Shown here: positions 9,660 to 42,939 of the stretch, one piece after another
Layout of the letters: each line of letters opens with the position of its first letter
How positions within the stretch are numbered: position 1 is the first letter of the stretch
Made by a program: the position numbers and the translations under genes
The notes under the pieces: model-generated
Seen by the model: the letters and a program-made list of their open reading frames with translations, nothing else
Told to the model about the DNA's origin: nothing
Databases searched by the model: none
Source of the DNA: a virus
Lineage: Duplodnaviria; Heunggongvirae; Uroviricota; Caudoviricetes
IMG/VR virus record: IMGVR_UViG_3300028591_000113
Location: 46,087-110,086 of that record
Reading direction: 5' to 3' (one strand)
Length of the DNA: 64,000 nt

Positions 9660-10808
9660 ACATTTACCATTTCAAGAAATCTACTATTAGCCTAAATTGT
9701 CGAGTTAGTTTTACAAACCACCAGTTGAGAGCTTGACCGCTCGTTGACCTCCGCAAGAGGTTGCTGGACGCATTTCCGCCGGTTTGAGGTCCCTATCGCA
9801 TGCATCCGAACAAAAGCGAACCTTGGCTTGATTAGTCACCCAGTAGTAGACTTGTATTCTAGAACCTATAAGATATTATTGAATAGTAGGTTTCTTGAAG
9901 TGGTAACACTTCTGTCTTATGTGGACCCCGTGCGCTAATGACGCGCATCGAGTGGGGGAATATCAGCGGGCCCCTGTAAGAAGCTGAATAGGACATTAAA
10001 CTTAATCGTCATTGTGCGGGCAGTCTCACGCACAGCAAGGAAATACCTTCCTGCTAGATAGACCAGACCTCTTCGCAAGTTGACGCGTAACGGGAACTTG
10101 CCGCCATACTGGTTGTAAAATGTAAGGGGATTTAGTTAGTTTCTACCCAGACCCGTGAAACTAATAAAGGTTGATGTCAGGTATAAGACTTAAACACCAA
10201 TAATAATGGGGATAAAAGAGTATGCGGCTGCAGACTGTCAGAATAACCCCATTATGCTGATAAGGTTTGGGGTACGCAATAGTAATGTTGCGACGGTCAA
10301 TAACCCTCGAGTTACCGGATAAGGAATATGTTGTGTAGTCAACTAAGGATACCGCTGAGGACTTGAAAAACCCCATTATGTGCCACCAGGAGACTGTATG
10401 ACCCGTATTCGAAAAGTAGGCTGGCAACTACAGGGTAAACTTAAAACCCACAATAAAGGATAAAGACCGTGTGGTCACCGTGGGACAGAACGACCCGAAA
10501 CTAGGGAACGGCAACGAACCCTAATGAGCGGGCACGACGAGGTAATGCGTTGCAGACAACCTTCACAGTAATGTGATGCTCGACGCGAGGTTTGCGGCTA
10601 TCCACCCGATAAAGCCGTGGGAGGCAACTGCCCAGGAAGGATAAGTGTTGAACGAATTCGGTAGTGCCCGCAGGGCGAAGAGTCCAGAAACCGGAGCCGC
10701 AACTCGGGGTTGGCTATTGCGAGTAGCAGGGTGCGGAGAATAGCCGAGGTAGGAAACAGGTTGATTTGCAGTTACGGTACCTGTATAAACCACTGACAAC
10801 TGCGATAT
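9660..10808 (+). ncRNA. about 1.15-kb ORF-free GC-rich region inside tRNA array; candidate large structured ncRNA (ROOL/GOLLD-like)
   Basis: No credible ORF, stops in all frames, GC far above coding neighbours, internal repeated modules (AACCCCATTATG at 10237 and 10369), flanked by tRNAs. Confidence 0.4.
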
Positions 10809-10884
10809 GGGGGTATAGCTCAATTGGGAGAGCAACTGCTTTGCAAGCAGAAGGTTGTGGGTTCGATTCCCATTACTTCCACCA
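10809..10884 (+). tRNA. tRNA-Ala (TGC) with G3-U70 identity pair
   Basis: Acceptor GGGGGTA/TACTTCC (G3-T70 wobble), anticodon loop TTTGCAA, T-stem GTGGG/CCCAT. Confidence 0.8.
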
Positions 10885-11023
10885 AATAGTTAATTATAGA
10901 GAAGGGAAACTCTTAAAACCGCTAGTAGATGGTAAGGCAAACGAAAAGTAATAAGTTGTCTGTGCAAACGATCTGCGCGAAATGCTCGGTTATAGTTGTC
11001 CGTTGACTAATACAACTAGAAAT

Positions 11024-11101
11024 ACAGAGTTGGTCTAGTGGCTAGGACGCCTGATTTGGGATCAGGACACTTCCCGGGTTCGAGTCCCGGACTCTGTACC
11101 A
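11024..11101 (+). tRNA. tRNA-Pro (TGG)
   Basis: Acceptor ACAGAGT/ACTCTGT perfect, anticodon stem CCTGA/TCAGG loop TTTGGGA, T-stem CCGGG/CCCGG. Confidence 0.85.
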
Positions 11102-11161
11102 TTCGTAAACCTGATGCTTTCTGGCGCTAGACGACCAATTATGCGCTGTCAGGAGATTTCT

Positions 11162-11248
11162 ATGAAAGCATTTCTAAATAAACTTTGGCAATTATTTGTT
11201 GAAGGCTGGAATAAGCAATTAGAAGCGCAAATCCGCTTTCATAAGTAA
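11162..11248 (+). CDS. tiny ORF (28 aa) between tRNAs
   Basis: AGGAG RBS; weak. Confidence 0.15.
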   Translation: MKAFLNKLWQLFVEGWNKQLEAQIRFHK

Positions 11249-11289
11249 TGCAGCAGGAAATCGGAACCTGCGTAAAACACCGATTATAT

Positions 11290-11365
11290 GCCCTTCTAAC
11301 CCAACGGTAGAGGTAGCAAGCTCAAACCTTGTTCAGTGAAGGTTCGAATCCTTCGAGGGGTACCA
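11290..11365 (+). tRNA. class-I (short variable arm) tRNA with anticodon CAA (Leu codon UUG), 76 nt
   Basis: Acceptor GCCCTTC/GAGGGGT, anticodon stem GCAAG/CTTGT loop CTCAAAC, T-arm GAAGG-TTCGAAT-CCTTC; variable loop only 5 nt, unlike bacterial tRNA-Leu. Confidence 0.6.
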
Positions 11366-11366
11366 T

Positions 11367-11452
11367 GCCTTCGTGGCGGAACTGGGAGACGCATCGCACT
11401 TAAGATGCGATGTCCACTGGGCGTGTGGGTTCGAGTCCCACCGAAGGTACCA
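11367..11452 (+). tRNA. tRNA-Leu (TAA), class II
   Basis: 86 nt, 7-bp anticodon stem CATCGCA/TGCGATG loop CTTAAGA, long variable arm, T-stem GTGGG/CCCAC. Confidence 0.8.
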
Positions 11453-11473
11453 TTTTTAGAAACAGGAGAAATT

Positions 11474-11734
11474 ATGACAAGAGACGATTTAATTAGCATT
11501 TTGAAAACCAAGAAGTTCGACTGCATGAATGATATGGTTGAATACTTTGAAAAATGCGGTTTTAACAGCGAAATTGAAGATGCTAATTGGGAATGTCTTT
11601 CTGTCAGATTTATAAACGGCACTGATAAATTGGATTTCAGTAGCCTTTACAACCCATGGCTTAATACATGGGAAGTCATTGTCTATGAATGGGATAACCC
11701 ATTTGATAATGACTACGAAATTAAATTAAGATAA
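11474..11734 (+). CDS. hypothetical protein (86 aa)
   Basis: AGGAG RBS, ORF between tRNA genes. Confidence 0.55.
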   Translation: MTRDDLISILKTKKFDCMNDMVEYFEKCGFNSEIEDANWECLSVRFINGTDKLDFSSLYNPWLNTWEVIVYEWDNPFDNDYEIKLR

Positions 11735-11737
11735 AAT

Positions 11738-11812
11738 ATCGGTCTAGTGTAACGGCAACACAGCTGTCTCCAAAACAGCACGATCAGGGTTCGAATCCTT
11801 GGGCCGGTGCCA
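11738..11812 (+). tRNA. tRNA-Trp (CCA)
   Basis: Acceptor ATCGGTC/GGCCGGT, D-stem GTGT/CACA, anticodon stem GCTGT/ACAGC loop CTCCAAA, discriminator G. Confidence 0.75.
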
Positions 11813-12203
11813 AATATACTCGTGTTGGTGCAATTAGTAGCATTCCAGCGGCACCAGGTATTAGACGATAAGACTAATACAATGACCGCGGGCGACGTAG
11901 GTGCAATTCCTATTTTACGAGTGCCGAACAGTTTATAATTGGTCGCAACTGGAACAGCGTGTCCAGCGCTGGCGATAATAATGGCTAAAAGACGAAAGCT
12001 CTGCCGCGCCAAATAGATGCCGTGTAACTCGGCTAGCAGAAACCATAAGAACACGAGGGGCTCCGTCTGCGAAAATAACTTTAGCCCCACCATGATGAAG
12101 ACTTATTGCTTATTCGGGAGTTTATGCGTTAATTTGCCCGTTATTGCTCGATACAGAGCCTGTGTATTAGGCGCATAAGTTGGTTCAATTCCAACATTCA
12201 TCA
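11813..12203 (+). other. structured non-coding stretch with tRNA-like fragments (T-arms GTAGG-TGCAATT-CCTAT and GTTGG-TTCAATT-CCAAC with CACCA end) but no canonical cloverleaf; possible intron-containing or degenerate tRNAs
   Basis: Two T-arm-like elements, acceptor-like pairings 107-113 nt apart, direct repeat GGTGCAATT x2. Confidence 0.25.
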
Positions 12204-12268
12204 CCAAAGATAATTGTCTAGGTGTGCGGCATAGACAAGAATAGCGCAATTCTCGAGCCGCACAATAT

Positions 12269-12343
12269 GCTGACGTAGTTTAATGGCAAAACCCGACGTT
12301 GCCAACGTTGAGACCGTGGGATCGGTACCCACCGCCAGCTCCA
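12269..12343 (+). tRNA. tRNA-Gly (GCC)
   Basis: Acceptor GCTGACG/CGCCAGC, D-stem GTTT/AAAC, anticodon stem CGACG/CGTTG loop TTGCCAA, T-stem GTGGG/CCCAC (loop ATCGGTA atypical). Confidence 0.6.
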
Positions 12344-12737
12344 AACATTTATAATAGAGAAAGCAAACTCTTAAAACTCCGGGTACGTTTACGCCGCAAG
12401 CTGAAGACTCAGTGATTTTAATCGCCGTTGTTAATTACTAGAAAAAAAATGACATTCTTTAGCCCATAGTCCCGACTATGAGAAGCGGAGACCTCCGAAT
12501 AATAGTGGGTGGAGCCACTTGGTCAGCAGATGAGAGGTTATCGGGACAAACTAATTTATAACTATCTTCAAGCGATTACCTGAGCACATCTACGTTAACA
12601 GGATGCAGGAGAGACTTGGCTCCCGATAAAGCCCGTCCATAATGTGGGACGAATAGAGAAGACCGGAATGTATACTGTAAATCCAAATAAAAGGCTGCCG
12701 GTTGGAGAAAAAACGTCAAAGGAGATAGTTATTATAT

Positions 12738-12813
12738 GCTTCGTTACGTCAACTGGGAGACTACAATCCTTACAAGATTGTGGCTGTAGGTCCGAGTCCT
12801 GCACGGAGCACCA
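12738..12813 (+). tRNA. tRNA-Val (TAC)
   Basis: Acceptor GCTTCGT/ACGGAGC, anticodon stem CAATC/GATTG loop CTTACAA, T-loop TCCGAGT. Confidence 0.7.
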
Positions 12814-12814
12814 T

Positions 12815-12888
12815 GCCCGATTAGTATAGTGGTAATACTCTTCCTTGCCAAGGAAGCATCGTCGGTTCGAATCCGTCATCGAGCTCCA
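12815..12888 (+). tRNA. tRNA-Gly (GCC), second copy
   Basis: Acceptor GCCCGAT/ATCGAGC (one mismatch), D-stem GTAT/ATAC, anticodon stem CTTCC/GGAAG loop TTGCCAA. Confidence 0.6.
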
Positions 12889-12978
12889 GATGTAAATAAG
12901 CTCAGTTAGAAGAGTTCACTGACTGTATAAAGTAAGTACACGAGCTACCGTGGATAAAATTAGCCAACTCTTTTGTAT

Positions 12979-13056
12979 GCGCCTTTAGCTCAGCTGGGAG
13001 AGCGCCACTTTGACGTAGTGGAGGTTTCATAGGTTCGATCCCTATAAGACGCACCA
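12979..13056 (+). tRNA. tRNA-Val (GAC)
   Basis: D-arm GCTC-AGCTGGGA-GAGC, anticodon stem CCACT/AGTGG loop TTGACGT, T-stem ATAGG/CCTAT. Confidence 0.75.
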
Positions 13057-13070
13057 TAAGACAATAATTA

Positions 13071-13097
13071 GGTGGACTAGGTCCGCCTTTTTTGTTA
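13071..13097 (+). terminator. Rho-independent terminator after tRNA array (GGTGGAC-ta-GGTCCGCC + T6)
   Basis: Hairpin + TTTTTT, immediately followed by conserved upstream motif. Confidence 0.7.
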
Positions 13098-13133
13098 TAA
13101 TAATTATAGAAAAGTAAAAGAGGAATTATATTT

Positions 13134-13463
13134 ATGCGTTGCTTAGACCTTGAAAACTTAAAATTAGGATGGATTTCTCCAACAGGAGAGTTCGTTTTTT
13201 GTCGTTATGGTGACCATACTAAACTTGCTTTTGAAATTTGCGAACGTTTAGGTGTTGATATTGACCCTCTTGCTGAAGAAGACCCAGAAATCTTTTTAAT
13301 CAGACATGACTGGATTTTAGTTCACGCCCCAGGATTGGACCACATTACTGCGCATTATGACTATGCTATCACAGAAGAACAGCAATCTGTTCTCAACTGG
13401 TTAGGTGTAGAAAACCGTTGCGAAGTTAGTGAATGCCCAATTTATGGGAAAGACTACTTATAA
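13134..13463 (+). CDS. hypothetical protein (109 aa)
   Basis: ORF after conserved TTATAATAATTATAGAAAAGTAAAAGAGG motif. Confidence 0.6.
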   Translation: MRCLDLENLKLGWISPTGEFVFCRYGDHTKLAFEICERLGVDIDPLAEEDPEIFLIRHDWILVHAPGLDHITAHYDYAITEEQQSVLNWLGVENRCEVSECPIYGKDYL

Positions 13464-13488
13464 AATTAAAGAAAGAAGGAAACTATAA

Positions 13489-13734
13489 ATGGAAGCAATC
13501 ACCAAAAAGGAACAAATTGAATATTATCAAGCCTGTTTATGTGGCTTATTAAGAGCCTTAAAATGTGTAGAAAAATCTAAAACTATATCATGTAGCGTAG
13601 CACCAATAGAAGATGCGAATAATGTTATTTTCTGGTTAGAACGTAATGATACTTGTATATTAAAGAAACTTGTTAAACAAGAATTAAAAGAAGTTAAAAG
13701 AAAACTGAAACAATTAAAGAAAGAAAGAAACTAA
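13489..13734 (+). CDS. hypothetical protein (81 aa), basic C-terminus
   Basis: ORF with GGAAAC RBS. Confidence 0.5.
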   Translation: MEAITKKEQIEYYQACLCGLLRALKCVEKSKTISCSVAPIEDANNVIFWLERNDTCILKKLVKQELKEVKRKLKQLKKERN

Positions 13735-13736
13735 TT

Positions 13737-14099
13737 ATGAATATGGACTTAAAGAAACTTACAGCTGAAAGTGAACACTATGCGCGAAAAATCGCAGATA
13801 AGACTTTTAAGCGCGGCGTTAGAGATTTGAAGAAAGAAATTCGCAAACAAACTAGAGCAGGAGAATATAATGCTATTCTTTATACTAGATATTGGATTTC
13901 TAGCGAAGTAGAGGAACGAATTAAAAAATACTTTGAAGAACAAGGTTTTTATATTCGTAAGTATCGTTTCGGAGAACTTAATGAATATGTGGAAGTTTGT
14001 TGGGGTCCAGGCATTGAACGCCATAAAGAAATCGATGCAATTCAACTTAAAATGATGGAAGAAATAGCCGAACAAGAGAAGAAAGAAAGCGAGGAATAA
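13737..14099 (+). CDS. hypothetical protein (120 aa)
   Basis: ORF, tight spacing in operon. Confidence 0.55.
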   Translation: MNMDLKKLTAESEHYARKIADKTFKRGVRDLKKEIRKQTRAGEYNAILYTRYWISSEVEERIKKYFEEQGFYIRKYRFGELNEYVEVCWGPGIERHKEIDAIQLKMMEEIAEQEKKESEE

Positions 14100-14101
14100 T
14101 T

Positions 14102-14593
14102 ATGCGCTTACTTACTGAAAATGAAATCAAATTCTTAAAAGATACTGGTTGGACTCCAACCGTTTATCAATGCGGTAATAGAGAATGGTATCGCACTATC
14201 TTTTGCGATGAAATCAATGAAGACCAATTAAGCGGTGATTTTACTAATAATGACGAAGTTCAACAACATTGCGCAATTTATGCGGATGAAAAATATGGTA
14301 TTGATTTACCTGCTTTTTATGATGATTTAGTTAAAGATATGGACGGCATCTCTCTTGAAGAAGAAGCACCATACATTATCTATTGTCTTTTAACAGAAGA
14401 AGAATTAGATAGCAAAACCGACGCAGAATTATTACAGTGGTTAAAAGACTGGAAGTATTTCTTCGGTTATCGCAAAGCAGACGAACAAGATGCTCGTATC
14501 GCAAGATATGAAGCCAAAGGCTTGTTCAATGGTGCGCGTGAAGTCCGCACCTATGATGATGGCAGTATTTATATTAGTGAATTGGAGGACTAA
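14102..14593 (+). CDS. acidic hypothetical protein (163 aa)
   Basis: ORF overlapping upstream stop (ATAATTATG). Confidence 0.6.
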   Translation: MRLLTENEIKFLKDTGWTPTVYQCGNREWYRTIFCDEINEDQLSGDFTNNDEVQQHCAIYADEKYGIDLPAFYDDLVKDMDGISLEEEAPYIIYCLLTEEELDSKTDAELLQWLKDWKYFFGYRKADEQDARIARYEAKGLFNGAREVRTYDDGSIYISELED

Positions 14594-14596
14594 TTT

Positions 14597-14878
14597 ATGA
14601 AATACCAAGATATACCTTATAATAAAATGGCTTTTACGCCTGAAGAAGCAGAACAATGCGCAGATTTTGTTAAGTATTTAATGCAAATGAAAAGCCCAGA
14701 CCATTACAATGAAATATGTATTACTTCTGATGGCTATTGCACTATTGTTTGTTGGGTTCATAAACCACATGATAATTCCTACGGTGGTAGTTTTGAGTTC
14801 GTTGATGAAGACCAAGATATTTGGACTGATAAAGAAATCGACGAAATCGTCAAAGCCCGTATAGAAAACCAAAAATAA
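14597..14878 (+). CDS. hypothetical protein (93 aa)
   Basis: ORF. Confidence 0.55.
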   Translation: MKYQDIPYNKMAFTPEEAEQCADFVKYLMQMKSPDHYNEICITSDGYCTIVCWVHKPHDNSYGGSFEFVDEDQDIWTDKEIDEIVKARIENQK

Positions 14879-14880
14879 CT

Positions 14881-14909
14881 TGACAACGAGCTTTAATTAT
14901 CATATAATA
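14881..14909 (+). promoter_or_regulatory. consensus sigma70 promoter TTGACA-17nt-TATAAT
   Basis: Perfect hexamers at 14881-14886 and 14904-14909. Confidence 0.7.
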
Positions 14910-14915
14910 TAAATG

Positions 14916-15843
14916 ACTAGATAGGGATATTGTGCGCAGTATCCCGAGCCTATCCTTGTGGGTAGGTGACTGACAAGTTGACCGACAGGTCGTTAAACTG
15001 CTGCTCACATAGTCCATGCGGAGCTTAATTGAGAAGAGGACATTTGATACTAAAAGATAATCCGTGAAATCTCAAATGATGCGGTGTCATCCACTTAGGG
15101 TAAAACCTGAGGACCTATTACTTCCTTAATTAGGGTTGAGATATTGTAGCGGTCGGGGATCTTTGAATGAGAGTAGGGTTGGCGCGCTCTCAGGGTAACA
15201 ACTTAGTTTGTTTTGTCGGCGTAGAGACGTTAAACCTACTGCTACCAATCTGACCAACCGGTTGCGTCAGTGAAACCTAGGATAACATGGACCTAGCGAC
15301 TTGAGTATGCGTTTACGGCCCGGGGTTACCCGCGCGGCGCATGCTAGTGGTTCCCACCATTCGGTGCTGAGGGATTGATCACCCAACGCGGTCCAACGTG
15401 AAAGCCGAAGAAACGCGGGAGATTCCCGCCTAGTAAGGGTTTGGCTCTTACACCTGTGAAAAAATGAAGGGATCGTTCCCCTTACTGTCCAGTAACTCTG
15501 GGCGGTGTGCTGGTGCCCAGCCTTGTCAAGCCGCAGGTAAAAGGTCACAGTTGAGGTGTGACTGAATAGGTAATGGTCTAAAACCTGCCGAGTTTGGTAA
15601 ATGACAATTAACCCAACCTCATTCTTTAGTTTGTTGGTGTAATCTAGCAGAAAACCATCTAGCTTCGCAATGTGCTAAAATACTAGTCAAACATTGTTTG
15701 AGAGTCCCAGGGTTGAGAGTGAAAGTCTAGCCACTCTCGTAAAATCATAGGCCGATAAGGTCTCTGGGCAAATGGATAGAAAAGTACCCTAAAATTCTAT
15801 CCAACTATTTGAAAATTAAGGTGGACTATGTCCACCTTTTTTG
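14916..15843 (+). ncRNA. about 930-nt ORF-free GC-rich transcription unit (promoter to terminator); candidate large structured ncRNA
   Basis: Stops in all 3 frames throughout, GC about 48% vs about 36% coding, perfect promoter upstream and terminator AAGGTGGAC-tat-GTCCACCTT+T6 at 15818-15843. Confidence 0.5.
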
Positions 15844-15878
15844 TTATAATTATTATATAGAAAAGTAGAGGTATATAT

Positions 15879-16133
15879 ATGAGAAAGTTAACTAAAACTA
15901 TCAATCGCAGACGTAAAAATTACAAACCAACAATCGGCTTAACATCAAAAGACGGTAGTTACCGCAAAAGTGTTAATGCTACTGTTTATTATATTAAACT
16001 TCAAAAGAAAAGAGATGCCGAGGCTGAACGAGAAGCACGAAAATTTCTTATGAACTTCTTAGAAGAAAAGATGCCTAAATTTTTTGGTATGCTTAATGCG
16101 TTTGCTAACTTAGGCGACTGGATGTATTATTAA
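15879..16133 (+). CDS. basic hypothetical protein (84 aa)
   Basis: ORF after conserved upstream motif TTATAATTATTATATAGAAAAGTAGAGG. Confidence 0.55.
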   Translation: MRKLTKTINRRRKNYKPTIGLTSKDGSYRKSVNATVYYIKLQKKRDAEAEREARKFLMNFLEEKMPKFFGMLNAFANLGDWMYY

Positions 16134-16146
16134 AAAGGAATTAATT

Positions 16147-16662
16147 ATGCCAAATGAAAAGATAAAAGTTCTATTCTTAGATGTCGATGGAGTTCTAAAC
16201 TCTACCGCAGAACTTTTTGATGACCGCGCAATTAATCCGAAAAAATTAGAAATCCTTAAAACTATTATTGATAAGACAAATGCTAAGATAGTTTTAACTT
16301 CTACTTGGCGTTGTTTTGTTAATAAGTTAAGTGCTGTTATTGAGGCACTTGAAACTGTTAATTTAGAACTCTATGGCATTACTCGTGAAGGAGTTGCTAT
16401 GAAAGACTTCAAAAATACTCCTTGGGCTAATGTAAAACGTTGCCCTTCCTATATTTATGAAGATGATATAAATAACGATCGCGGGGCAGAGATTGCCTGG
16501 TGGATTTGGTGCAGAAGAGAAAAAATAGATAAGTTTGCCATCGTTGATGACGAAGATGTTGATATTCGTAAGTATTTCCCAAATAACATTGTGAAAACAG
16601 GATTTTCAACAGGGCTTACTTCAGAAGACGCGGCGAAAATAGTAAAGATACTGGAGGATTAA
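16147..16662 (+). CDS. HAD-superfamily phosphatase (DxDxV motif FLDVDGVLN)
   Basis: N-terminal motif I LFLDVDGVLN, motif II S/T (LTSTW), C-terminal acidic Asp cluster (VDDEDVD). Confidence 0.6.
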   Translation: MPNEKIKVLFLDVDGVLNSTAELFDDRAINPKKLEILKTIIDKTNAKIVLTSTWRCFVNKLSAVIEALETVNLELYGITREGVAMKDFKNTPWANVKRCPSYIYEDDINNDRGAEIAWWIWCRREKIDKFAIVDDEDVDIRKYFPNNIVKTGFSTGLTSEDAAKIVKILED

Positions 16663-16664
16663 CC

Positions 16665-17060
16665 ATGAGTATTTTAGACAGTGAATATTTTTATGATGTT
16701 TATTGTAGTAAATTAGCAGACGAATGTAATAGTCTTAAAGAGGCTTTATCTTGCTATTGCGAGGAATGTGGCAATGGTGCTGATGTTATTCGTTATTATG
16801 TGGAACGCCATGAAAAAGACGAAAACTTTGAAACAGAAGTTGAACTTTTAGGCTATCCAAAAATCGCGCAATTACTTGACATTTTATTGCCTACTAAGTA
16901 TGACATTATGAAACCTTGGTATAAACGTCAATGTCTCAGTTTACTCGGAGAAGACGATAAAGACTTAACTGCGCACGAAAAGCATTGGAAGCGCATTATT
17001 GCTAATATTTATGATTATTACAAAAAAGGTTTCGATAAAGTTGACGAAACTCTTGACTAA
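16665..17060 (+). CDS. hypothetical protein (131 aa)
   Basis: ORF. Confidence 0.55.
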   Translation: MSILDSEYFYDVYCSKLADECNSLKEALSCYCEECGNGADVIRYYVERHEKDENFETEVELLGYPKIAQLLDILLPTKYDIMKPWYKRQCLSLLGEDDKDLTAHEKHWKRIIANIYDYYKKGFDKVDETLD

Positions 17061-17248
17061 ACCCGAAAATTATTTTATAATACTTATAGAAAGATAAGAA
17101 AATATCTTTTATTAGTTGAAAGGAGAACTACGCTATGACAAAACTAATATCTAAACAATTTAGACTCAGTTGCCAACGCTCAATGAAGTGTATGTTTTCC
17201 TATGCTAGTAAGAGATAATTAGTTTTACCTAATACCACGATTAATTAT

Positions 17249-17283
17249 TACCACTAGTATAGGAAATACTAGTGGTTTTTTAT
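17249..17283 (+). terminator. Rho-independent terminator (ACCACTAGTA-n-TACTAGTGGT + T6)
   Basis: 10-bp perfect stem + TTTTTT. Confidence 0.7.
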
Positions 17284-17287
17284 TGAT

Positions 17288-17363
17288 GCGTGGGTACCCA
17301 AGCGGCTAAGGGAGCTGGCTGCAACCCAGTTATTCGGGGGTTCGAATCCCTTCTCACGCTCCA
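17288..17363 (+). tRNA. tRNA-Cys (GCA)
   Basis: Acceptor GCGTGGG/CTCACGC, anticodon stem GCTGG/CCAGT loop CTGCAAC, T-loop TTCGAAT. Confidence 0.75.
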
Positions 17364-17378
17364 TACTTGGATCGTTCG

Positions 17379-17456
17379 CCAAGCAGTTCTAAGGCCCTCG
17401 GCCCATAACCGAGTTATCGTGGGTGCGAATCCTACACGATCCACCAAAATAATTTA
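17379..17456 (+). tRNA. tRNA with CAT anticodon (Met or Ile2-lysidine type), C33 in loop CCCATAA
   Basis: Acceptor GGATCGT/ACGATCC perfect, anticodon stem CTCGG/CCGAG, T-stem GTGGG/CCTAC. Confidence 0.6.
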
Positions 17457-17515
17457 TAGACATAATTGAAAAGTTATGTTATAATAAATATGTAAGAAAA
17501 AGAAAGGAAGATATT

Positions 17516-17863
17516 ATGTCTGTTCTTAAAACACAAGGAGATTTTAGAATCTCCCAAATCAAAAAATTAACTCAATTATGTCCTGAACCCGTGTTAGAAG
17601 CGCGACCAATTAAAGAAGGTCTTAGTTTGGAAAAAACTTATTTAGACCCAGCAGACGGTAAAGTGCATGCTTACTCTATTGCATCATTCAAGTGGGATGC
17701 TCACAATGAATGTGTTGATATGGAAACTGTTGGTGAACGCTTTATGACAGGTGTTTCAGAAGAAGAATATCCTGCGGTTAGAGAATTAATGCAATTTGCT
17801 ACTGATTTAATTAGAGCCGCATGGGAAAATGAAGAAGAAGGAGACTGGGATTACACCCGTTAA
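17516..17863 (+). CDS. hypothetical protein (115 aa)
   Basis: ORF with AAGGAAG RBS. Confidence 0.55.
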   Translation: MSVLKTQGDFRISQIKKLTQLCPEPVLEARPIKEGLSLEKTYLDPADGKVHAYSIASFKWDAHNECVDMETVGERFMTGVSEEEYPAVRELMQFATDLIRAAWENEEEGDWDYTR

Positions 17864-17873
17864 CCTTCAAGAT

Positions 17874-17953
17874 AACCGTGTCGCCAAGTGGCTCAAGGCA
17901 CCAGACTTTGACTCTGGTATATGTCGTAGGTTCGAATCCTTCCACGGTTGCCA
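17874..17953 (+). tRNA. tRNA-Gln (TTG)
   Basis: Acceptor AACCGTG/CACGGTT perfect, anticodon stem CCAGA/TCTGG loop CTTTGAC. Confidence 0.7.
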
Positions 17954-17955
17954 AT

Positions 17956-18026
17956 GGCTGTATTGTTCAGTAACAGCGTGCGTCTCATAAGCGCATTAAG
18001 AAAGTGCGACTCTTTCTGCAGCCACC
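17956..18026 (+). tRNA. tRNA with CAT anticodon (third CAT tRNA), compact 71 nt
   Basis: Acceptor GGCTGTA/TGCAGCC, anticodon stem TGCGT/GCGCA loop CTCATAA, T-stem GAAAG/CTTTC. Confidence 0.55.
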
Positions 18027-18038
18027 AATACGATATTA

Positions 18039-18060
18039 AAATGCAATTTATTGCATTTTA
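18039..18060 (+). promoter_or_regulatory. perfect 22-bp palindrome AAAATGCAATTTATTGCATTTT (operator-like) between tRNAs, plus second palindrome GTGCAGTAAAATGCAC at 18081-18096
   Basis: Exact inverted repeats seen in sequence. Confidence 0.35.
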
Positions 18061-18102
18061 GGACATAAAAACTTACTTAAAGTGCAGTAAAATGCACGTT
18101 AT

Positions 18103-18177
18103 GGTCAGGTAACTTATATGGTAGAGTGAAGGTCTGAAAAACCTTAGAAGTGGATCCGAGCGCCACCCTGACCACCA
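18103..18177 (+). tRNA. tRNA-Phe (GAA)
   Basis: Acceptor GGTCAGG/CCTGACC perfect, anticodon stem AAGGT/ACCTT loop CTGAAAA. Confidence 0.75.
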
Positions 18178-18182
18178 AATAT

Positions 18183-18271
18183 GCACCTGTGGTGAAATTG
18201 GTAGACACGCCACTTTGAGGGGGTGGTGTCCGTACAAGGACGTGCGAGTTCGAATCTCGCGAGGTGCACCA
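18183..18271 (+). tRNA. tRNA-Leu (GAG), class II
   Basis: 89 nt, anticodon stem CCACT/GGTGG loop TTGAGGG (G37), variable-arm hairpin GTCC..GGAC, T-stem GCGAG/CTCGC. Confidence 0.7.
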
Positions 18272-18395
18272 GATAATTAATTACACTCCGAGACAGAAAC
18301 ACTCATTCAAGTTTCCAGCAACTTATGAGAGCGCATCCGAGAAGAGATTTCGTAGCTTACAATAAAAGGAAGCCAAAGGGAGTAGGTCGCGGAGT

Positions 18396-18860
18396 GTGAT
18401 AATAAATGAAAGGAAACTAATGAAGTATTTTATTTCTTACTTTGCGCGATTAAAGGACTTCACATCTAATATGTTGCCCGTTTCGACCGCAGCATTTGAG
18501 CAGGCTTGGTTCAGAGGTAAGGTAGAACATATACCTGAATTAACACCTCCTACCAAGATTATGGTTGAACTTGAGGCTACTAATCAGATGTGCCGTAAAA
18601 ACTGTCCATTTCATGCACCGTGCGCGTTTATGGACAAGTATAAGGAATATCTTGACTCATTAGATTTTGATAAAGTGATTACAAAGTTAGAATTATTAAC
18701 TTTGAAACACCCAACCGTTGATACTATTGTATTGATGGTTTATGAAAAATATGATGTTCCTTGCGCTGAAAGACCTTGCTTACAAGCGTGGTTTAAAGAG
18801 CATGGAATAGAACTAAAAGAGTGGAATAAGCCGCAAATTAAGAAAACAGAATTGTTTTAG
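18396..18860 (+). CDS. hypothetical protein (154 aa)
   Basis: ORF, TAG stop. Confidence 0.55.
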   Translation: MIINERKLMKYFISYFARLKDFTSNMLPVSTAAFEQAWFRGKVEHIPELTPPTKIMVELEATNQMCRKNCPFHAPCAFMDKYKEYLDSLDFDKVITKLELLTLKHPTVDTIVLMVYEKYDVPCAERPCLQAWFKEHGIELKEWNKPQIKKTELF

Positions 18861-18871
18861 AAAGGATTGTT

Positions 18872-19210
18872 ATGGGTTTTTACGAAGAACATGATGAAGA
18901 TGTCAATCATTTAGCAGATAAGAATAAATTATCTGACGCTGAAAAAATTAAGATGTGCGAGATTCTTATGGATACTTGCGCAGCCTATGACATTCCACTC
19001 AATAGCATTGAAGATGCGCAGAACTTCTGGGAACTAATCAGATATGGTTATACCCACGTTGAACGTGAAGAACAAGCCGCTCTTTATCGCTTTATTAATA
19101 CTCATTATCCACAATTATTCGCAGAGATGGACGAATGTTATGAAAACTTAAAAAAGACATATCCATTGGCTGCGGCAAGTGGAGTTTACGATTATAAGAA
19201 AAACAGATAA
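18872..19210 (+). CDS. hypothetical protein (112 aa)
   Basis: ORF. Confidence 0.55.
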   Translation: MGFYEEHDEDVNHLADKNKLSDAEKIKMCEILMDTCAAYDIPLNSIEDAQNFWELIRYGYTHVEREEQAALYRFINTHYPQLFAEMDECYENLKKTYPLAAASGVYDYKKNR

Positions 19211-19288
19211 TGCTCAGGTACTCGAACTGGTATAGAATGCTGGCTTAGAATCAGTAGTTTGTGGGTTCGAATCCCACCCTGAGCACCA
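19211..19288 (+). tRNA. class-I tRNA with anticodon TAG (Leu codon CUA/CUG), weak D-stem
   Basis: Acceptor GCTCAGG/CCTGAGC perfect, anticodon stem GCTGG/TCAGT loop CTTAGAA, T-arm GTGGG-TTCGAAT-CCCAC; 78 nt with 5-6 nt variable loop. Confidence 0.55.
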
Positions 19289-19310
19289 AACCAGAACAAG
19301 GAGAACAATT

Positions 19311-19496
19311 ATGGAAAAGGTTTACTTTATTTTTGATGATAGAATTTATTGCGGCGCAATCATGGATAAGAAAAGCGATGGTTGGATTGTCGCAGCAGGT
19401 AATGAAGTTATGTGGTTACCTATTACAGAACCACGCTTCAAATCATTAAATGAAGCACTTAGTTATAAATGTGGCGGAGTTTTAACACCACAATAA
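19311..19496 (+). CDS. small hypothetical protein (61 aa)
   Basis: ORF with AAGGAG RBS. Confidence 0.5.
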   Translation: MEKVYFIFDDRIYCGAIMDKKSDGWIVAAGNEVMWLPITEPRFKSLNEALSYKCGGVLTPQ

Positions 19497-19497
19497 T

Positions 19498-19572
19498 ACT
19501 CCTATAGCACAACGGTAATGCAACTGACTCTTAATCAGTGGAGTGAAGGTTCGAATCCTTCTGGGAGTACCA
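19498..19572 (+). tRNA. tRNA-Lys (CTT)
   Basis: Anticodon stem ACTGA/TCAGT loop CTCTTAA, T-arm GAAGG-TTCGAAT-CCTTC. Confidence 0.75.
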
Positions 19573-19576
19573 AAAT

Positions 19577-19656
19577 GCGCCCGTAGCTCAGCTGGTTTTT
19601 AGAGCATCTGACTTTTAATCAGGGGGTCGAAGGTTCGAATCCTTCCGGGCGCACCA
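19577..19656 (+). tRNA. tRNA-Lys (TTT)
   Basis: Acceptor GCGCCCG/CGGGCGC perfect, D-arm GCTC..GAGC, anticodon loop CTTTTAA. Confidence 0.8.
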
Positions 19657-19743
19657 ATTAATTTAATATGGCCCACGGGGTTTCCGGACGGTCCGTGAAA
19701 GCTTAACCTTTACGGAGGCATAAGAAAGGCAGAATTATAATTT

Positions 19744-20052
19744 ATGAGCAGAAGTTATAGAAAATCACCAGTTATTAAAGACAATGGCAAAGGCAAGAAA
19801 AAGCAAAAAGCAATCGCTAATAGAGTAGTCAGAAGAAAATTAAAAAATCCTGATTATGTTGTTCCTAATGGCGGTTCTTATACCAAGGAATACGAATCTT
19901 GGAGAATTGCTGATTATACTTCCAGATGCACTGAAGAAGAAGCCAAAGAAATGTGGCATCGTTCAATGAGAAAATATCCTTGGTTTAAAGAACACTACCC
20001 AACATTAGAATCTTATATGATTTGGTGGAAGAAAACTTATAGGAGCAAGTAG
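19744..20052 (+). CDS. basic hypothetical protein (102 aa)
   Basis: ORF. Confidence 0.55.
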   Translation: MSRSYRKSPVIKDNGKGKKKQKAIANRVVRRKLKNPDYVVPNGGSYTKEYESWRIADYTSRCTEEEAKEMWHRSMRKYPWFKEHYPTLESYMIWWKKTYRSK

Positions 20053-20053
20053 T

Positions 20054-20263
20054 ATGAAATTAACATATACAATTCAATGGACGGATCCAGTTAAACAAAA
20101 TATGCCATTCTTGAAAATTGATGGTGATGATAATATAGCATTATATATTGCCAAAAAGAAATTAGATGAAGGTATGGAAAATGTAGTCATCAGACTTAAT
20201 AAAGCCGTCGAAGGCAAAGAAGATGAGCATTATCCTGCCGTTGATAATGGAGACGTGGAGTAA
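20054..20263 (+). CDS. small hypothetical protein (69 aa)
   Basis: ORF; 3-prime end overlapped by tRNA-Ser(GCT). Confidence 0.5.
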   Translation: MKLTYTIQWTDPVKQNMPFLKIDGDDNIALYIAKKKLDEGMENVVIRLNKAVEGKEDEHYPAVDNGDVE

Positions 20264-20336
20264 TAGGTATCTCAAGAGATTGCTAATCTCTCCAACCTCC
20301 TGGGTTGTCCGGGTTCGAGTCCCGGCGCCTCCGCCA
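20249..20336 (+). tRNA. tRNA-Ser (GCT), class II, 5-prime end overlapping last 5 codons of upstream CDS
   Basis: Acceptor GGAGACG/CGCCTCC (6/7 bp), anticodon stem AGAGA/TCTCT loop TTGCTAA, variable-arm hairpin CAACC..GGTTG, T-arm CCGGG-TTCGAGT-CCCGG. Confidence 0.55.
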
Positions 20337-20339
20337 GAT

Positions 20340-20430
20340 GCGGGCTTAGTTATAAATGGTAAAACTTGTGTTGAAAAAGGAAGAAAACACTAACTGTCCT
20401 TGTTGCGGGTTCAACTCCCGTAGTCCGCTC
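20340..20430 (+). other. tRNA-like element (acceptor GCGGGCT/AGTCCGC, T-arm GCGGG-TTCAACT-CCCGT, no CCA) with unresolved anticodon arm; possible atypical or degenerate tRNA
   Basis: Clear acceptor and T-arm pairing about 91 nt apart; no 7-nt anticodon loop could be placed. Confidence 0.3.
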
Positions 20431-20593
20431 TTTACGTTCTTTTCAGGTTTATGCCATATCTGTAATCAGAAAGGCATACGAGGCTGCTATCGTGAATCGT
20501 AGCTTGGATCAGCGGCGAAGATCCGCTGGCGAGTGATTCTTGCCTAATCCGGCTCGGTCAAGTCGTTAGTAAGTGATTCTTACATGACCATAT

Positions 20594-20683
20594 AGAAGTG
20601 TGAGTGAGTCCGGTTTAAACTACTGGTCTAGAAAACCAGCGAACAGCAATGTTCCGTGGGTTCAAATCCCACCGCTTCTGCCA
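20594..20683 (+). tRNA. tRNA-Ser (AGA), class II, A34
   Basis: Acceptor AGAAGTG/CGCTTCT, anticodon stem CTGGT/ACCAG loop CTAGAAA, variable-arm hairpin GAAC..GTTC, T-stem GTGGG/CCCAC. Confidence 0.55.
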
Positions 20684-20699
20684 AAATTACAAACTACCT

Positions 20700-20786
20700 G
20701 GAGAGCTGTGATAACTGGTAGTCGGGCGGTCTTGAAAACCGTTGTACATTAATGTATTTAGGGTTCGAGTCCCTAGCTCTCCGCCA
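20700..20786 (+). tRNA. tRNA-Ser (TGA), class II
   Basis: Acceptor GGAGAGC/GCTCTCC perfect, anticodon stem GCGGT/ACCGT loop CTTGAAA, variable hairpin GTACAT..ATGTAT, T-arm TAGGG-TTCGAGT-CCCTA. Confidence 0.75.
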
Positions 20787-20790
20787 ATAT

Positions 20791-20868
20791 ACCCTCTTAG
20801 CTCAACTGGATTAGAGCACTTGGCTACGAACCAAGAGGTTGCGCGTTCGAATCGTGCAGAGGGTGCCA
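20791..20868 (+). tRNA. tRNA-Arg (ACG)
   Basis: Acceptor ACCCTCT/AGAGGGT perfect, anticodon stem CTTGG/CCAAG loop CTACGAA. Confidence 0.8.
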
Positions 20869-20871
20869 GAT

Positions 20872-20948
20872 ACCCACATAGCTCAACTGGACAGAGCAAT
20901 GGATTTCTAATCCATCGGTTGAGGGTTCGAGTCCTTCTGTGGGTGCCA
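20872..20948 (+). tRNA. tRNA-Arg (TCT)
   Basis: Acceptor ACCCACA/TGTGGGT perfect, anticodon stem ATGGA/TCCAT loop TTTCTAA. Confidence 0.8.
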
Positions 20949-23583: not shown

Positions 23584-24454
23584 GCTCACAACGAAAAAGT
23601 ATTATCGAGAGATAAGAAAAAGTAGTTCGAGATACGAGAAACAGGGAAACCTGAAACTCCGCTGGCAAACGAAAATGCTGCCTTGGGCAAGCATAATGGC
23701 CCACCTTGTTCTTTGAAAATTATTTTGCAGCTTGGTGAAGATGGTCTTGCGGACCGCCAAGCAGTGACTCAAGAATGAAAGTGTCATGGGATACTGTGAC
23801 ATAAGTAAGAAACCTAGATAGTGATAGATAGGTAAACCTACTCATAAGAAAAGTAAGGATTGAGCCATGTGGGCAATATGTTAACTTGAACTCTAAACAA
23901 TACTTAAACTCGGCGGTGACAAGAGGCTACGCAGTAACAATTAAGAATGCGCCCCACCGCGAGATACTAGCGTGAGAAACTAGTATCTGGGTTCTCAAAG
24001 GAAACCGATGTCTTGATGTCTAGAAATAGACTATAACCGAGTAAAGTAGTGCGAGTAGCCGTACGACAGGAAGATAGAAAATGGCTTTAATTTGCAAGTA
24101 TGATCGCAAATCCTACACAGAATCTGAAGCTCGGTGAAAGTTGATGAGTAATGACCTCATCTTGTGTTAGTGTCTTAGGACACACTTCAGGAAGTGTAAG
24201 ATCGCAACTTACCCTCAGACCTGCGGTGCAATGTGTGAAACAAGAGTAGTTAATAAGTGTTGTATCATGAATAAAAGTGGGCAAAATGATTTTTAAAGAA
24301 CAAGGTAACTTGTTCAACTCACCTAACAATAGACCCCGTTAATAGTAAGGGATGGACCTCTGGAGCGAGAGCATTACAGGTTGAAGGTAGACGTGGCCCT
24401 TACCGATAGTGAGTTAAATATTAAGCATAGCGTGTCGAAAGGCACGCTTTTTTG
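23584..24454 (+). ncRNA. about 870-nt ORF-free GC-rich transcription unit; candidate large structured ncRNA
   Basis: Promoter upstream, terminator AGCGTG-tcgaaagg-CACGCT+T5 at 24429-24454, no plausible ORF on either strand (only spurious short ones). Confidence 0.45.
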
Positions 24455-28713: not shown

Positions 28714-28869
28714 TATATACTAAAATTCATTTTTGCCGAAACGTGACAAAATAACTATATTATATATGTATCAGTATTAAAGGCAAAATTACAGTAATGT
28801 AATGACGCAAAACTATAGGATCCTCCGACGGATAGCCAGTTACCTGACCAATCCTTTGGAGGTTTTTAT

Positions 28870-29445
28870 ATGAAATTAAGAAACAAATTGGCTGCAATTA
28901 CAGCCGCTGCCATGTTAGCTTTCACAGGCGTTGGTTTTGCTGCATGGACTTTCAATAACAGTGTCGCACAAGAACAAGAAGTTGGCACATATGTTACATC
29001 AGCAATCAATGCTAAAAATGTTGCCCTTTCTGGTGACACAACAGTCTATTTAGTTTTAGACCAAGAAAAACCATATTGGTCAACTGCCGTTAATAATGGC
29101 TCCAAACCAGTTGAACTCGCAAATGGTAAAATCACAGTTACACCTGATTATGATTTAACAAATAATAATGATGGTGCCTCTTGGACTTATCATTTAACAA
29201 GTGCCATTACTGTTAGCAGCGACATCGCAAATTATGTTAATGTTACAGGTTTTGACGTTGTTGAAAAAACTGGTACAATTACTGCCGCAGATCATGAAAC
29301 CATCGCAGCAGTCGATTACAACTTACCAAGTCTCGCTTACACTACTAATAAACCAGCAAACTATGCTGATTATACAACAATGTTAAGCGCTGTAAGTGGT
29401 GATATTATTGAATTCTCATTCAACTGCACATTCACACAAAACTAG
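28870..29445 (+). CDS. secreted TasA/camelysin-family-like protein with signal peptide ending ...GFAAW-TFNN
   Basis: N-terminal signal peptide MKLRNKLAAITAAAMLAFTGVGFA followed by AAWTFNNSV, resembling TasA TWAAFND start of mature protein; GGAGGT RBS. Confidence 0.5.
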   Translation: MKLRNKLAAITAAAMLAFTGVGFAAWTFNNSVAQEQEVGTYVTSAINAKNVALSGDTTVYLVLDQEKPYWSTAVNNGSKPVELANGKITVTPDYDLTNNNDGASWTYHLTSAITVSSDIANYVNVTGFDVVEKTGTITAADHETIAAVDYNLPSLAYTTNKPANYADYTTMLSAVSGDIIEFSFNCTFTQN

Positions 29446-42842: not shown

Positions 42843-42939
42843 AGGGGTGTGGCGTAATGGTAGCGCAGCGGTCTTCAAAACCGTAAAGATTCCGTGTCCA
42901 AAGCGGTAGGTGCGGGTTCGACTCCTGTCACCCCTGCCA
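42843..42939 (+). tRNA. tRNA with UCA anticodon (reads UGA), 97 nt, long variable arm, selC-like T-arm GGTTCGACTCCTGT; suppressor/tRNA-Sec-like
   Basis: Acceptor AGGGGTG/CACCCCT perfect + G73 + CCA, anticodon stem GCGGT/ACCGT loop CTTCAAA (U33, A37), about 25-nt extra arm. Confidence 0.65.

Follow-up and report, generated by a model that had tools for sequence, protein, structure and literature searches.

A spacer in a tRNA array of a phage genome probably encodes a large, modular, structured non-coding RNA of an uncatalogued family, co-transcribed with the tRNAs and freed by tRNA processing, a reading to which we assign a probability of roughly 0.65. The spacer (hereafter 'the element') occupies positions 9660-10808 on the + strand of a 64,000-nt stretch of phage DNA ('the window'), whose strand and coordinates are used throughout. 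Conserved, intricately folded and without a match to any catalogued family, it joins the few very large structured RNAs. To our knowledge, very few bacterial or phage RNAs combine a length above about 500 nt with extensive conserved structure, and almost all of the classes that are understood are ribozymes, core cellular machines or, lately, RNA-only cages; for two such phage RNAs, ROOL and GOLLD, we know of no function.

The element fills the 1149-nt spacer between two tRNA genes, within a series of 32 tRNAs encoded on the same strand (8297-20948) as predicted by ARAGORN. Its two borders are defined by the flanking genes:

9584-9659, + strand: tRNA-Thr(AGU) with encoded CCA (ARAGORN; Rfam tRNA, 63.8 bits); its 3' end is the 5' border of the element
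10809-10884, + strand: tRNA-Ala(UGC) (ARAGORN); its 5' end, the RNase P site, is the 3' border of the element

A first-pass annotation of the DNA had described a GC-rich gap of more than 1.1 kb between these two tRNAs, free of open reading frames (ORFs), in the kind of tRNA cluster where ROOL and GOLLD RNAs are found. All of this holds: the borders are exact, no credible ORF is present under genetic codes 11, 4 or 15, G+C content is 0.474 (47%) against 0.356 (36%) for the window, and the position inside a phage tRNA array is the niche reported for both RNAs (PMC12286853).

The element is non-coding. The longest ORFs touching it (88 and 90 aa) both lie on the minus strand, and shuffles of the same sequence give longer stop-free frames (98-102 ± 22-25 aa) than the longest one seen (88 aa). 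The homologues behave likewise, with longest open frames of 63-91 aa. Substitutions show no three-nucleotide periodicity (93, 93 and 77 mismatches by phase against the homologue L121), and only 0-3 of the 11-18 indels per homologue are multiples of three. Because the genome seems to recode TGA, the ORF test was redone with TGA or TAG read as sense (codes 4 and 15); the resulting frames fall within the shuffled range and differ between homologues. A concatenated six-frame translation, meant to catch spurious ORFs called in homologues on short contigs, drew 7184 candidates from 5.8 billion proteins, none of them at E<=1. The split or pseudogenised protein gene that the first-pass annotation had named as an alternative is excluded by these tests of open frame, periodicity, indels and protein homologues.

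Distribution, architecture and covariation

Nine homologous loci were found, all on metagenomic phage contigs (L121, L126, L127, L128, L135, L136, L142, L143 and L144). The search set out from two neighbouring proteins, a HAD_SAK_2 protein (16147-16662) and a 259-aa protein (6511-7290), and went on with invariant DNA blocks; the public collections were searchable by exact patterns only, and the distribution of the family is therefore seen in part. Syntenic copies lie between tRNA-Thr(agt) and tRNA-Ala(tgc) on L121 (124 kb) and L135 (41 kb), and L136 carries a 5' partial copy that diverges past the core. A 20-mer of the longest invariant block led to three JGI metagenome contigs: L128, 98.5% identical to the window copy; L127, about 92% identical in the conserved parts and with a diverged 5' domain; and L126, a partial copy. 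A block without variation in any of these copies led to L142, a 41.7-kb contig from a metagenome-assembled genome labelled 'Bacilli bacterium', with a 722-nt version between tRNA-Val(tac) and tRNA-Ala(tgc). Two scans of IMG/VR added L143 (223 kb) and L144 (149 kb), which hold the core only.

The copies on L121, L127, L128, L135 and L142, and the partial ones on L126 and L136, all lie among tRNA genes. The 5' neighbour is tRNA-Thr(agt) in L121, L128, L135 and L126, tRNA-Thr(tgt) in L127 and L136, and tRNA-Val(tac) in L142. On the other side, tRNA-Ala follows in the window, L128, L121, L127, L135 and L142; the five array copies with an intact 3' end are all upstream of tRNA-Ala(UGC), three of them directly, with extra sequence before it in L127 (about 75 nt, 2386-2462) and L135 (about 110 nt, 14006-14112). 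The extra stretch in L135 holds T-arm-like remnants (GGTTCGACTCC, GGTTCGAGTCC), which suggests decayed tRNA genes.

Several searches came back empty. Close-relative protein scans of IMG/VR with two neighbouring genes gave nothing, nor did three IMG/VR patterns and one GTDB pattern, which spanned positions variable in L135, L142 or L143. No copy was detected by profile hidden Markov model (HMM) and/or R1, the covariance model of the core, in the distant phages that share HAD_SAK_2 (L122, L123 and L145-L151). The repeat AAWAACCCCATTATG from the first-pass annotation, used as an IMG/VR search key, gave more than 119 single chance matches and no homologous one.

Aligned with one another, the copies resolve into an optional 5' domain (D1), a hypervariable linker, a core of about 155 nt and two 3' domains (D3 and D4). 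Identities are given against the window copy, for five homologues including L127:

9664-9906, + strand: D1, optional 5' domain, 243 nt; 60-81% identity; absent from L142
9897-9912, + strand: GNRA hairpin GAAGTG-GTAA-CACTTC, read from the sequence
9907-10011, + strand: hypervariable linker; 96-97% identity in L127 and L136; about 230 nt and 41% in L121; absent from L135 and from L142
10012-10175, + strand: core, a three-way junction of about 155 nt, taken more narrowly as 10014-10170; 85-100% identical in all homologues
10176-10258, + strand: variable hairpin region; 54-66% identity, length varies
10259-10375, + strand: D3, also delimited as 10256-10375; 71-96% identity
10376-10440, + strand: inserted hairpin (expansion segment) opening with the ATTATG of the second repeat copy; in the window and L128 only, missing from L127, L135, L121 and L142
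10441-10808, + strand: D4, the 3' region; its first part, 10441-10640, has 73-92% identity
10641-10745, + strand: variable middle of D4; 45-86% identity
10746-10808, + strand: 3' end; 87-96% identity

Near-invariant blocks broken by hairpins of variable length are typical of large structured RNAs. Among the same phages, identity of the adjacent 259-aa protein is only 53-83%, and tRNA-Thr(agt) differs at many positions between the window and L121; since these diverge more, the conserved blocks are under stronger constraint than their surroundings.

The core carries the strongest conservation and is an autonomous module, found also alone in two other large phage contigs. It is laid out as a junction of P3, H3 and H4, flanked by the hairpins H1, H2 and H5:

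10014-10018 with 10029-10033, + strand: core helix H1
10034-10041 with 10049-10055, + strand: core helix H2
10068-10072 with 10125-10129, + strand: P3, CCUCU with AGGGG, closing the three-way junction
10075-10081 with 10095-10101, + strand: H3, with the invariant palindrome ACGCGU (10083-10088) in its loop
10107-10110 with 10121-10124, + strand: H4, which replaced one RNAalifold helix as a better fit to the sequences
10135-10146 with 10155-10165, + strand: H5, with the loop UACCCA.A..CGU

Covariation is seen in five of the six helices; P3 never varies, and so is only predicted. Long invariant unpaired stretches include AGAUAGACCAGA, UUGACGCGU, CCGCCA, AUUUA and the H5 loop. R1 scores all members at 180-208 bits, with one copy per locus, against a best match of 11.9 bits in 826 kb of unrelated viral contigs, and has no match elsewhere in the window, at the GOLLD loci or in the distant HAD_SAK_2 phages. 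The two contigs with a lone core differ widely in G+C content (0.285 for L143, 0.443 for L144); their cores have compensatory changes in H1-H5 and lie outside any tRNA array, and within the fetched stretches neither contig has a detectable protein in common with the window. The core is thus common to phage contigs of very different base composition. In L143 it lies directly behind an ORF stop, with a tRNA(UCA) that has its own promoter-like site 150 nt downstream. In L144 it closes an ORF-poor stretch of about 570 nt; a terminator-like hairpin with a U-run comes next, ahead of a head-tail-adaptor-like ORF.

Outside the core, D1 is closed by a 25-bp stem (9664-9688 with 9882-9906, inverted repeat I1) around a multi-branched interior. 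Nucleotides 9897-9902 can pair in two ways, with 9668-9673 in the outer closing stem or with 9907-9912 in the GNRA hairpin. At the latter site L121 reads GAAGTT...AACTTC, its G-to-T change being met by a C-to-A change in the 5' arm of D1 (TTACAATTTC), and L126 has a different, longer hairpin (AAGTTAT...ATAACTT); the changes in these two sequences fit both pairings, which suggests alternative conformations at 9897-9912. A terminator scan flagged this hairpin, and L135 has no U-run behind it. In the variable hairpin region the window has a long hairpin of its own, ATAATGGGG (10203-10211) with CCCCATTAT (10247-10255; inverted repeat I2), and the homologues keep a hairpin there with wholly different sequences. 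D3 contains a GNRA-capped hairpin, CGCAATA-GTAA-TGTTGCG (CTCATTC-CGCAAG-GATGGG in L142), and a long helix, TCGAGTT/GACTTGA. The conserved blocks of D4 include GGGACAGAACGACCCG and CGACGCGAGGTTTGCGGCTATCCACC, and the element ends in a conserved hairpin (10766-10773 with 10798-10805), in which L121 has an A-U to G-C change and which leaves 3 nt to tRNA-Ala.

The repeated modules reported in the first-pass annotation stand in part. The repeat AACCCCATTATG does occur twice (10245-10256 and 10369-10380), where by our own estimate about 0.04 repeated 12-mers would be expected by chance in 1149 nt. The first copy is the 3' arm of the hairpin with ATAATGGGG and the second starts the 10376-10440 insert; because both sit at window-specific insertions that are missing in L121, L127, L135 and L142, most of which keep only the AAAAACCC part of the second copy, the repeat is real but lineage-specific and does not define the element. 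The other pair put forward, GGGGATAAAAGAG (10208-10220) and GGATAAAGACC (10458-10468), has only GGATAAA/GATAAAG-type motifs in common.

Structure was assessed with RNAalifold on an alignment of each domain, followed by explicit counts of pairs, with slid partners and 500 shuffles as controls:

D1, 6 sequences: 49 pairs; 93% of cells paired; 17 pairs changed on both sides, against 3-5 with slid partners
Core and D3, 5 sequences: 74 pairs; 99% paired; 11 changed on both sides, against 0-2
Core, 8 distinct sequences including L143 and L144: 40 pairs; 98% paired; 16 changed on both sides, against 0-3
D4, 5 sequences: 92 pairs; 94% paired; 9 changed on both sides, against 1-6

In each alignment, none of the 500 shuffles reached the observed number of pairs changed on both sides. 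The element thus has compensatory helices above both slid and shuffled controls, as a structured RNA generally does, with D4 marginal. Only the + strand, on which the tRNAs lie, is compatible with the conserved G-U pairs and the G-C to G-U changes. The first-pass annotation had named a lack of structural conservation across related phages as a refutation; such conservation is present. Its many GC-rich helices are borne out by covariation in D1 and the core (16-17 doubly compensated pairs) and not by folding energy alone, which is decisive for D1 only (z = -4.86); for 10012-10808 the z-score is -1.7 on the + strand and -0.7 on the minus strand. When 7 sequences were scanned for covarying helices without supervision, the output was mostly noise and served just to confirm helices found otherwise.

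Comparison with known RNAs

A scan of the full window with the 4227 families of Rfam 15 at gathering thresholds found no match in 9660-10808; the same scan detects tRNAs, a c-di-GMP-I riboswitch and a ROOL RNA elsewhere in the window. At E<=10 and with laxer filters, 9500-10950 gave only the flanking tRNAs and chance-level matches (Plastid-ycf2, tmRNA_permuted over tRNA-Ala, and SNORA32), the L121 copy gave a chance match only, and the context of the L144 core gave no Rfam match. Group I and II introns, RNase P RNA and tmRNA had no Rfam match at E<=10 in the window or L121 copy, and ARAGORN found no tmRNA. Distant-mode blastn with the whole element, its core-to-3' part and the L144 core returned nothing but a chance 21-mer from 50,697 GenBank phage records and 72,556 PLSDB plasmids. 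No description of this RNA was found in Rfam 15, the GenBank phages, PLSDB or searches of full-text literature. Two resemblances were considered and set aside: the H5 loop AGACCCGUGAAAC recalls 23S rRNA near A2058-A2062, which our own estimate puts down to chance, and a likeness to RNase P P4 seen by eye is located in the least conserved part and has no Rfam support.

The first-pass annotation had pointed to ROOL and GOLLD and proposed cmsearch as a check; the outcome is negative, and membership of either family is not supported. Neither the window copy nor the L121 copy reaches the gathering threshold of ROOL (RF03087, 99.1 bits), or that of GOLLD (RF02032, a model of the conserved 3' domain, 150 bits), and neither matches either family at E<=10. 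Positive controls behaved as expected, RF03087 scoring 196.4 bits at 23707-24300 of the window and 213.2 bits in L121, and RF02032 scoring 216.4, 189.9 and 165.3 bits at three loci (L129-L131) of a Mycobacterium, a Vibrio and a Caulobacter phage, respectively, with coordinates taken from the supplementary alignment of PMC12286853. Because the same models detect true ROOL and GOLLD controls, the element is not a recognisable member of either family. Reciprocally, a profile of the element (nhmmer) and R1 (cmsearch) find nothing in the GOLLD loci, and profile HMM and covariance-model searches miss the ROOL copy too.

ROOL and GOLLD are phage RNAs that often lie near tRNA islands and form RNA-only cages; in GOLLD the 5' part is less conserved, the 3' part universal and the linker variable, sometimes holding tRNAs, and no protein is known as its dedicated partner (PMC12286853). 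The element occupies the same niche and has a similar gradient, from an optional D1 (60-81%) through a deletable linker to a core and 3' end at 85-100%, which is a likeness of layout and not homology. A highly diverged GOLLD (or ROOL) missed by the Rfam models would account for this likeness, but we consider it very improbable: permissive searches and their reciprocals failed where controls reached 165-216 bits (GOLLD) and 196-213 bits (ROOL), the GOLLD consensus blocks AAAGCAAAAG, GUGGAUAAG..GGGAA and GUAAUCUCAG are missing from the element, and the genome already has a ROOL RNA. The consensus blocks and helix layout of GOLLD are also unlike those of the element, whose most conserved part is a mid-located module of about 155 nt that is also found alone. 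Cage oligomerisation has been demonstrated for GOLLD.

ROOL resembles the element in being a large structured RNA of rumen and gut phages near tRNA islands, and the two co-occur in the same genomes. It is, however, a separate gene at a separate locus, about 580 nt long, with a multi-pseudoknot fold of its own and an octameric RNA-only cage; the element is 720-1150 nt and modular, and its derived helix layout is unlike the ROOL consensus. Comparable in genomic setting are two products of the tRNA cluster of phage T4, species 1 and species 2 (alternatively RNA C and RNA D), stable non-tRNA RNAs of about 120-140 nt for which we know of no function; they are co-transcribed with the tRNAs and freed by the tRNA-processing machinery, the same logic that we infer for the element, which is 5-8 times larger and multi-domain. 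The manA and EGFOA motifs are shorter than 200 nt, come in some cases from cyanophages, and form RNA-only oligomers via kissing loops and GNRA-receptor contacts (bioRxiv 10.64898/2026.07.01.735769). The core is comparable in size, with GNRA-type loops nearby and an invariant self-complementary loop, but both motifs are Rfam families and the core matches none. The element is, then, of a known kind, a large structured phage RNA in a tRNA island, but belongs to a new family with its own architecture.

Proposed processing and role, and alternative readings

A consensus scan located candidate signals around the element:

7304-7332, + strand: perfect sigma-70 consensus TTGACA-17-TATAAT, candidate promoter upstream of the array
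8947-8975, + strand: second promoter-like site (10/12), candidate promoter
13070-13098, + strand: intrinsic-terminator-like hairpin with a T-run, the only strong one, directly 3' of tRNA-Val (12979-13056), the last tRNA of the block

The same scan found no promoter-like site on the + strand within 9660-10808 and no convincing terminator inside it. The D1 closing stem begins 5 nt past the CCA end of tRNA-Thr, and in the window, L121 and L142 alike a gap of 1-5 nt separates the upstream tRNA from the start of the element, and one of 3 nt separates its end from tRNA-Ala, the shorter version in L142 filling its Val-Ala spacer likewise. With this geometry, and with neither a promoter-like site nor a convincing terminator inside, RNase P and tRNA 3' maturation would release the element as a discrete RNA. 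A single precursor would carry the tRNAs and the element, running from a promoter ahead of the array to the terminator at 13070; RNase P cleavage at the 5' end of tRNA-Ala would make the 3' end of the element, and 3' processing of the upstream tRNA its 5' end.

The freed RNA would, speculatively, act in trans while the phage infects its host. A conserved partner would be bound by the core at its invariant single-stranded junctions and loops, such as a component of translation or tRNA processing or a second copy of the RNA, for example via the self-complementary ACGCGU loop, and D1, D3 and D4 would serve as a scaffold, by analogy and not homology with ROOL and GOLLD. The conservation of unpaired core positions across phages, the link with tRNA arrays and the ROOL and GOLLD precedent are the reasons for proposing that the element possibly acts on the translation or tRNA machinery or self-assembles, a suggestion that we hold loosely; self-assembly of the core in particular is pure conjecture. 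A bolder version, which we find doubtful, would make the element a third, unrelated class beside GOLLD and ROOL, built around a portable three-way-junction module of about 155 nt common to phages of very different composition, in which the RNA or the core alone forms an RNA-only homo-oligomer, or is a ribozyme or high-affinity binder of the host translation or tRNA machinery. If that were true, one genome would contain at least three large structured RNAs (the element, ROOL and a block at 15215-15815 described below). An unrelated further family in the ROOL and GOLLD niche, in the same genomes as ROOL, would suggest that the tRNA islands of large phages are a general home of big functional RNAs, which would offer a comparative handle on their roles. 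The compact, covariation-supported core, which occurs both alone and embedded, would be tractable for structure determination and binding assays.

A number of points weigh against a single, large, processed RNA. Geometry and consensus scans are the basis for proposing co-transcription and excision, and direct abutment on tRNA-Ala is not universal, L127 and L135 being spaced apart from it. With about 8 distinct sequences, mostly of one phage clade, shared ancestry could by itself carry the counts past the shuffle controls, and many pairs of the core are invariant. The fold of D4 is provisional, the long-range pairings between modules rest on invariant columns, and by folding energy the core-to-3' part does not stand out (z = -1.7). 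By our own estimate, the palindromic ACGCGU has a chance of about 1 in 8 of arising in a loop of that size. The modularity itself (L142 without D1, the lone cores of L143 and L144, the hypervariable linker) may mean that there are several RNAs.

This last point leads to the main rival, a string of independent RNAs (D1; core; D3-D4) between the same tRNAs, possibly cut apart by further processing, which we judge less likely than a single RNA but well worth keeping in mind. D1 is self-contained within its 25-bp stem and absent from L142, the core stands alone in L143 and L144, the linker between them can be deleted, and L136 diverges past the core. Yet no tRNA, promoter-like site or convincing terminator separates the modules, the core, D3 and D4 keep the same order in all five complete array copies, and a predicted pairing of a core junction (GACCT) with D3 (AGGTT), in columns that are invariant, would join them. 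Were the core instead a cis-acting sensor, a riboswitch-like aptamer or protein-binding leader from which the array copy was derived or co-opted, the arrangement in L144 (core, terminator-like hairpin with U-run, head-tail-adaptor-like ORF) would read as aptamer and expression platform, and the clustering of invariant nucleotides in the junctions and loops of a three-way junction would be natural. We regard this as improbable, however: array copies are followed by tRNAs and no ORF, the L143 core lies behind an ORF stop and ahead of a tRNA, the first gene called after it, which has a promoter-like site of its own, the downstream genes have no common theme, and an aptamer of about 155 nt inside a conserved RNA of 0.7-1.1 kb would be atypical.

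Scarcely credible is the remaining reading, largely refuted by the tests above, that the element is a decayed protein gene, an alternative-code gene, decayed tRNA genes or an intron remnant conserved by recent ancestry. The apparent recoding of TGA in part of the genome could make ORF lists under code 11 misleading, and L135 has tRNA-like remnants just 3' of its copy. Against this, open frames read in codes 4 and 15 do not exceed what shuffling gives and share no common frame, indels are mostly not multiples of three, and codon periodicity and protein homologues are lacking, as are matches to tRNAs, group I or II introns, RNase P RNA or tmRNA at E<=10. The conserved blocks are, moreover, far more conserved than nearby coding DNA and carry compensatory changes, and the core spans phages of 28-47% G+C. 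A single modular RNA released by tRNA processing thus remains our preferred reading.

Other features of the window

The ROOL RNA of the window (RF03087; 23707-24300, + strand) lies about 13 kb downstream of the element and outside the tRNA array proper; its counterpart in L121 is at 16617-17192. A second conserved non-coding block of about 600 nt (15215-15815, + strand; G+C up to 0.52) has no + strand ORF, lies upstream of an 84-aa ORF and the HAD_SAK_2 gene, and is 84-89% identical to L121 8977-9553 and L135 18306-18968. Folded together by RNAalifold, the three sequences form 177 pairs, of which 15 show compensatory changes, and no Rfam match was found at E<=1 save a sub-threshold sraA. The block ends in AAGGTGGACTATGTCCACCTTTTTT, like the terminator at 13070, with a terminator-like hairpin at 15818-15842, and is possibly another new large RNA.

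In distantly related large phages (L123, L145, L147 and L148), which lack the core RNA, HAD_SAK_2 has translation and RNA-repair genes as neighbours: ribosomal protein S21, a hibernation-factor homologue (Ribosomal_S30AE), a class Ib aminoacyl-tRNA synthetase, a CCA-adding/PolyA_pol enzyme and Metallophos, with an RNA ligase in L150. Directly upstream of HAD_SAK_2 in the 97-kb relative L122 are 2.7 kb without called genes or tRNA (7232-10001), which have no likeness to the element by profile HMM or R1.

Two spacers on the + strand, 12092-12265 immediately before tRNA-Gly(gcc) and 12547-12737 immediately before tRNA-Val(tac), are more conserved than many tRNAs of the array, with identities to L121 and L135 of 95% and 94%, respectively; they have no Rfam match and may be further small structured RNAs or processing signals. 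The region 7291-8012 (+ strand), without an ORF of at least 90 aa, is conserved at 79-95% in L121, L132, L135, L136 and L138. It is opened by the TTGACA-17-TATAAT site (7304-7332) and closed by a bidirectional terminator-like hairpin (7983-8005), gene callers have placed ORFs of 41-48 aa there in relatives, and it could be a small-protein or small RNA unit.

There are signs of TGA recoding in 30000-64000. Reading TGA as sense raises the share in open frames of at least 150 aa from 0.38 to 0.81 in 30-47 kb and from 0.55 to 0.91 in 47-64 kb, and only from 0.33 to 0.40 in 1-30 kb; reading TAG as sense changes little. A tRNA whose anticodon is UCA ('SeC' by ARAGORN) is predicted at 42843-42939, and similar ones occur in L123 and L143.

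Two further tRNAs were probably missed by ARAGORN. One (8191-8284, + strand) has a GUA anticodon loop and is 89-97% identical to a stretch labelled tRNA-Tyr in one Enterococcus phage record, the other listed records being unannotated or otherwise annotated; the other (20340-20429, + strand) has a weak Rfam tRNA match of 32 bits. A c-di-GMP-I riboswitch aptamer (28772-28847, + strand; 58.8 bits against a gathering threshold of 35) lies directly upstream of the ORF at 28870-29445.

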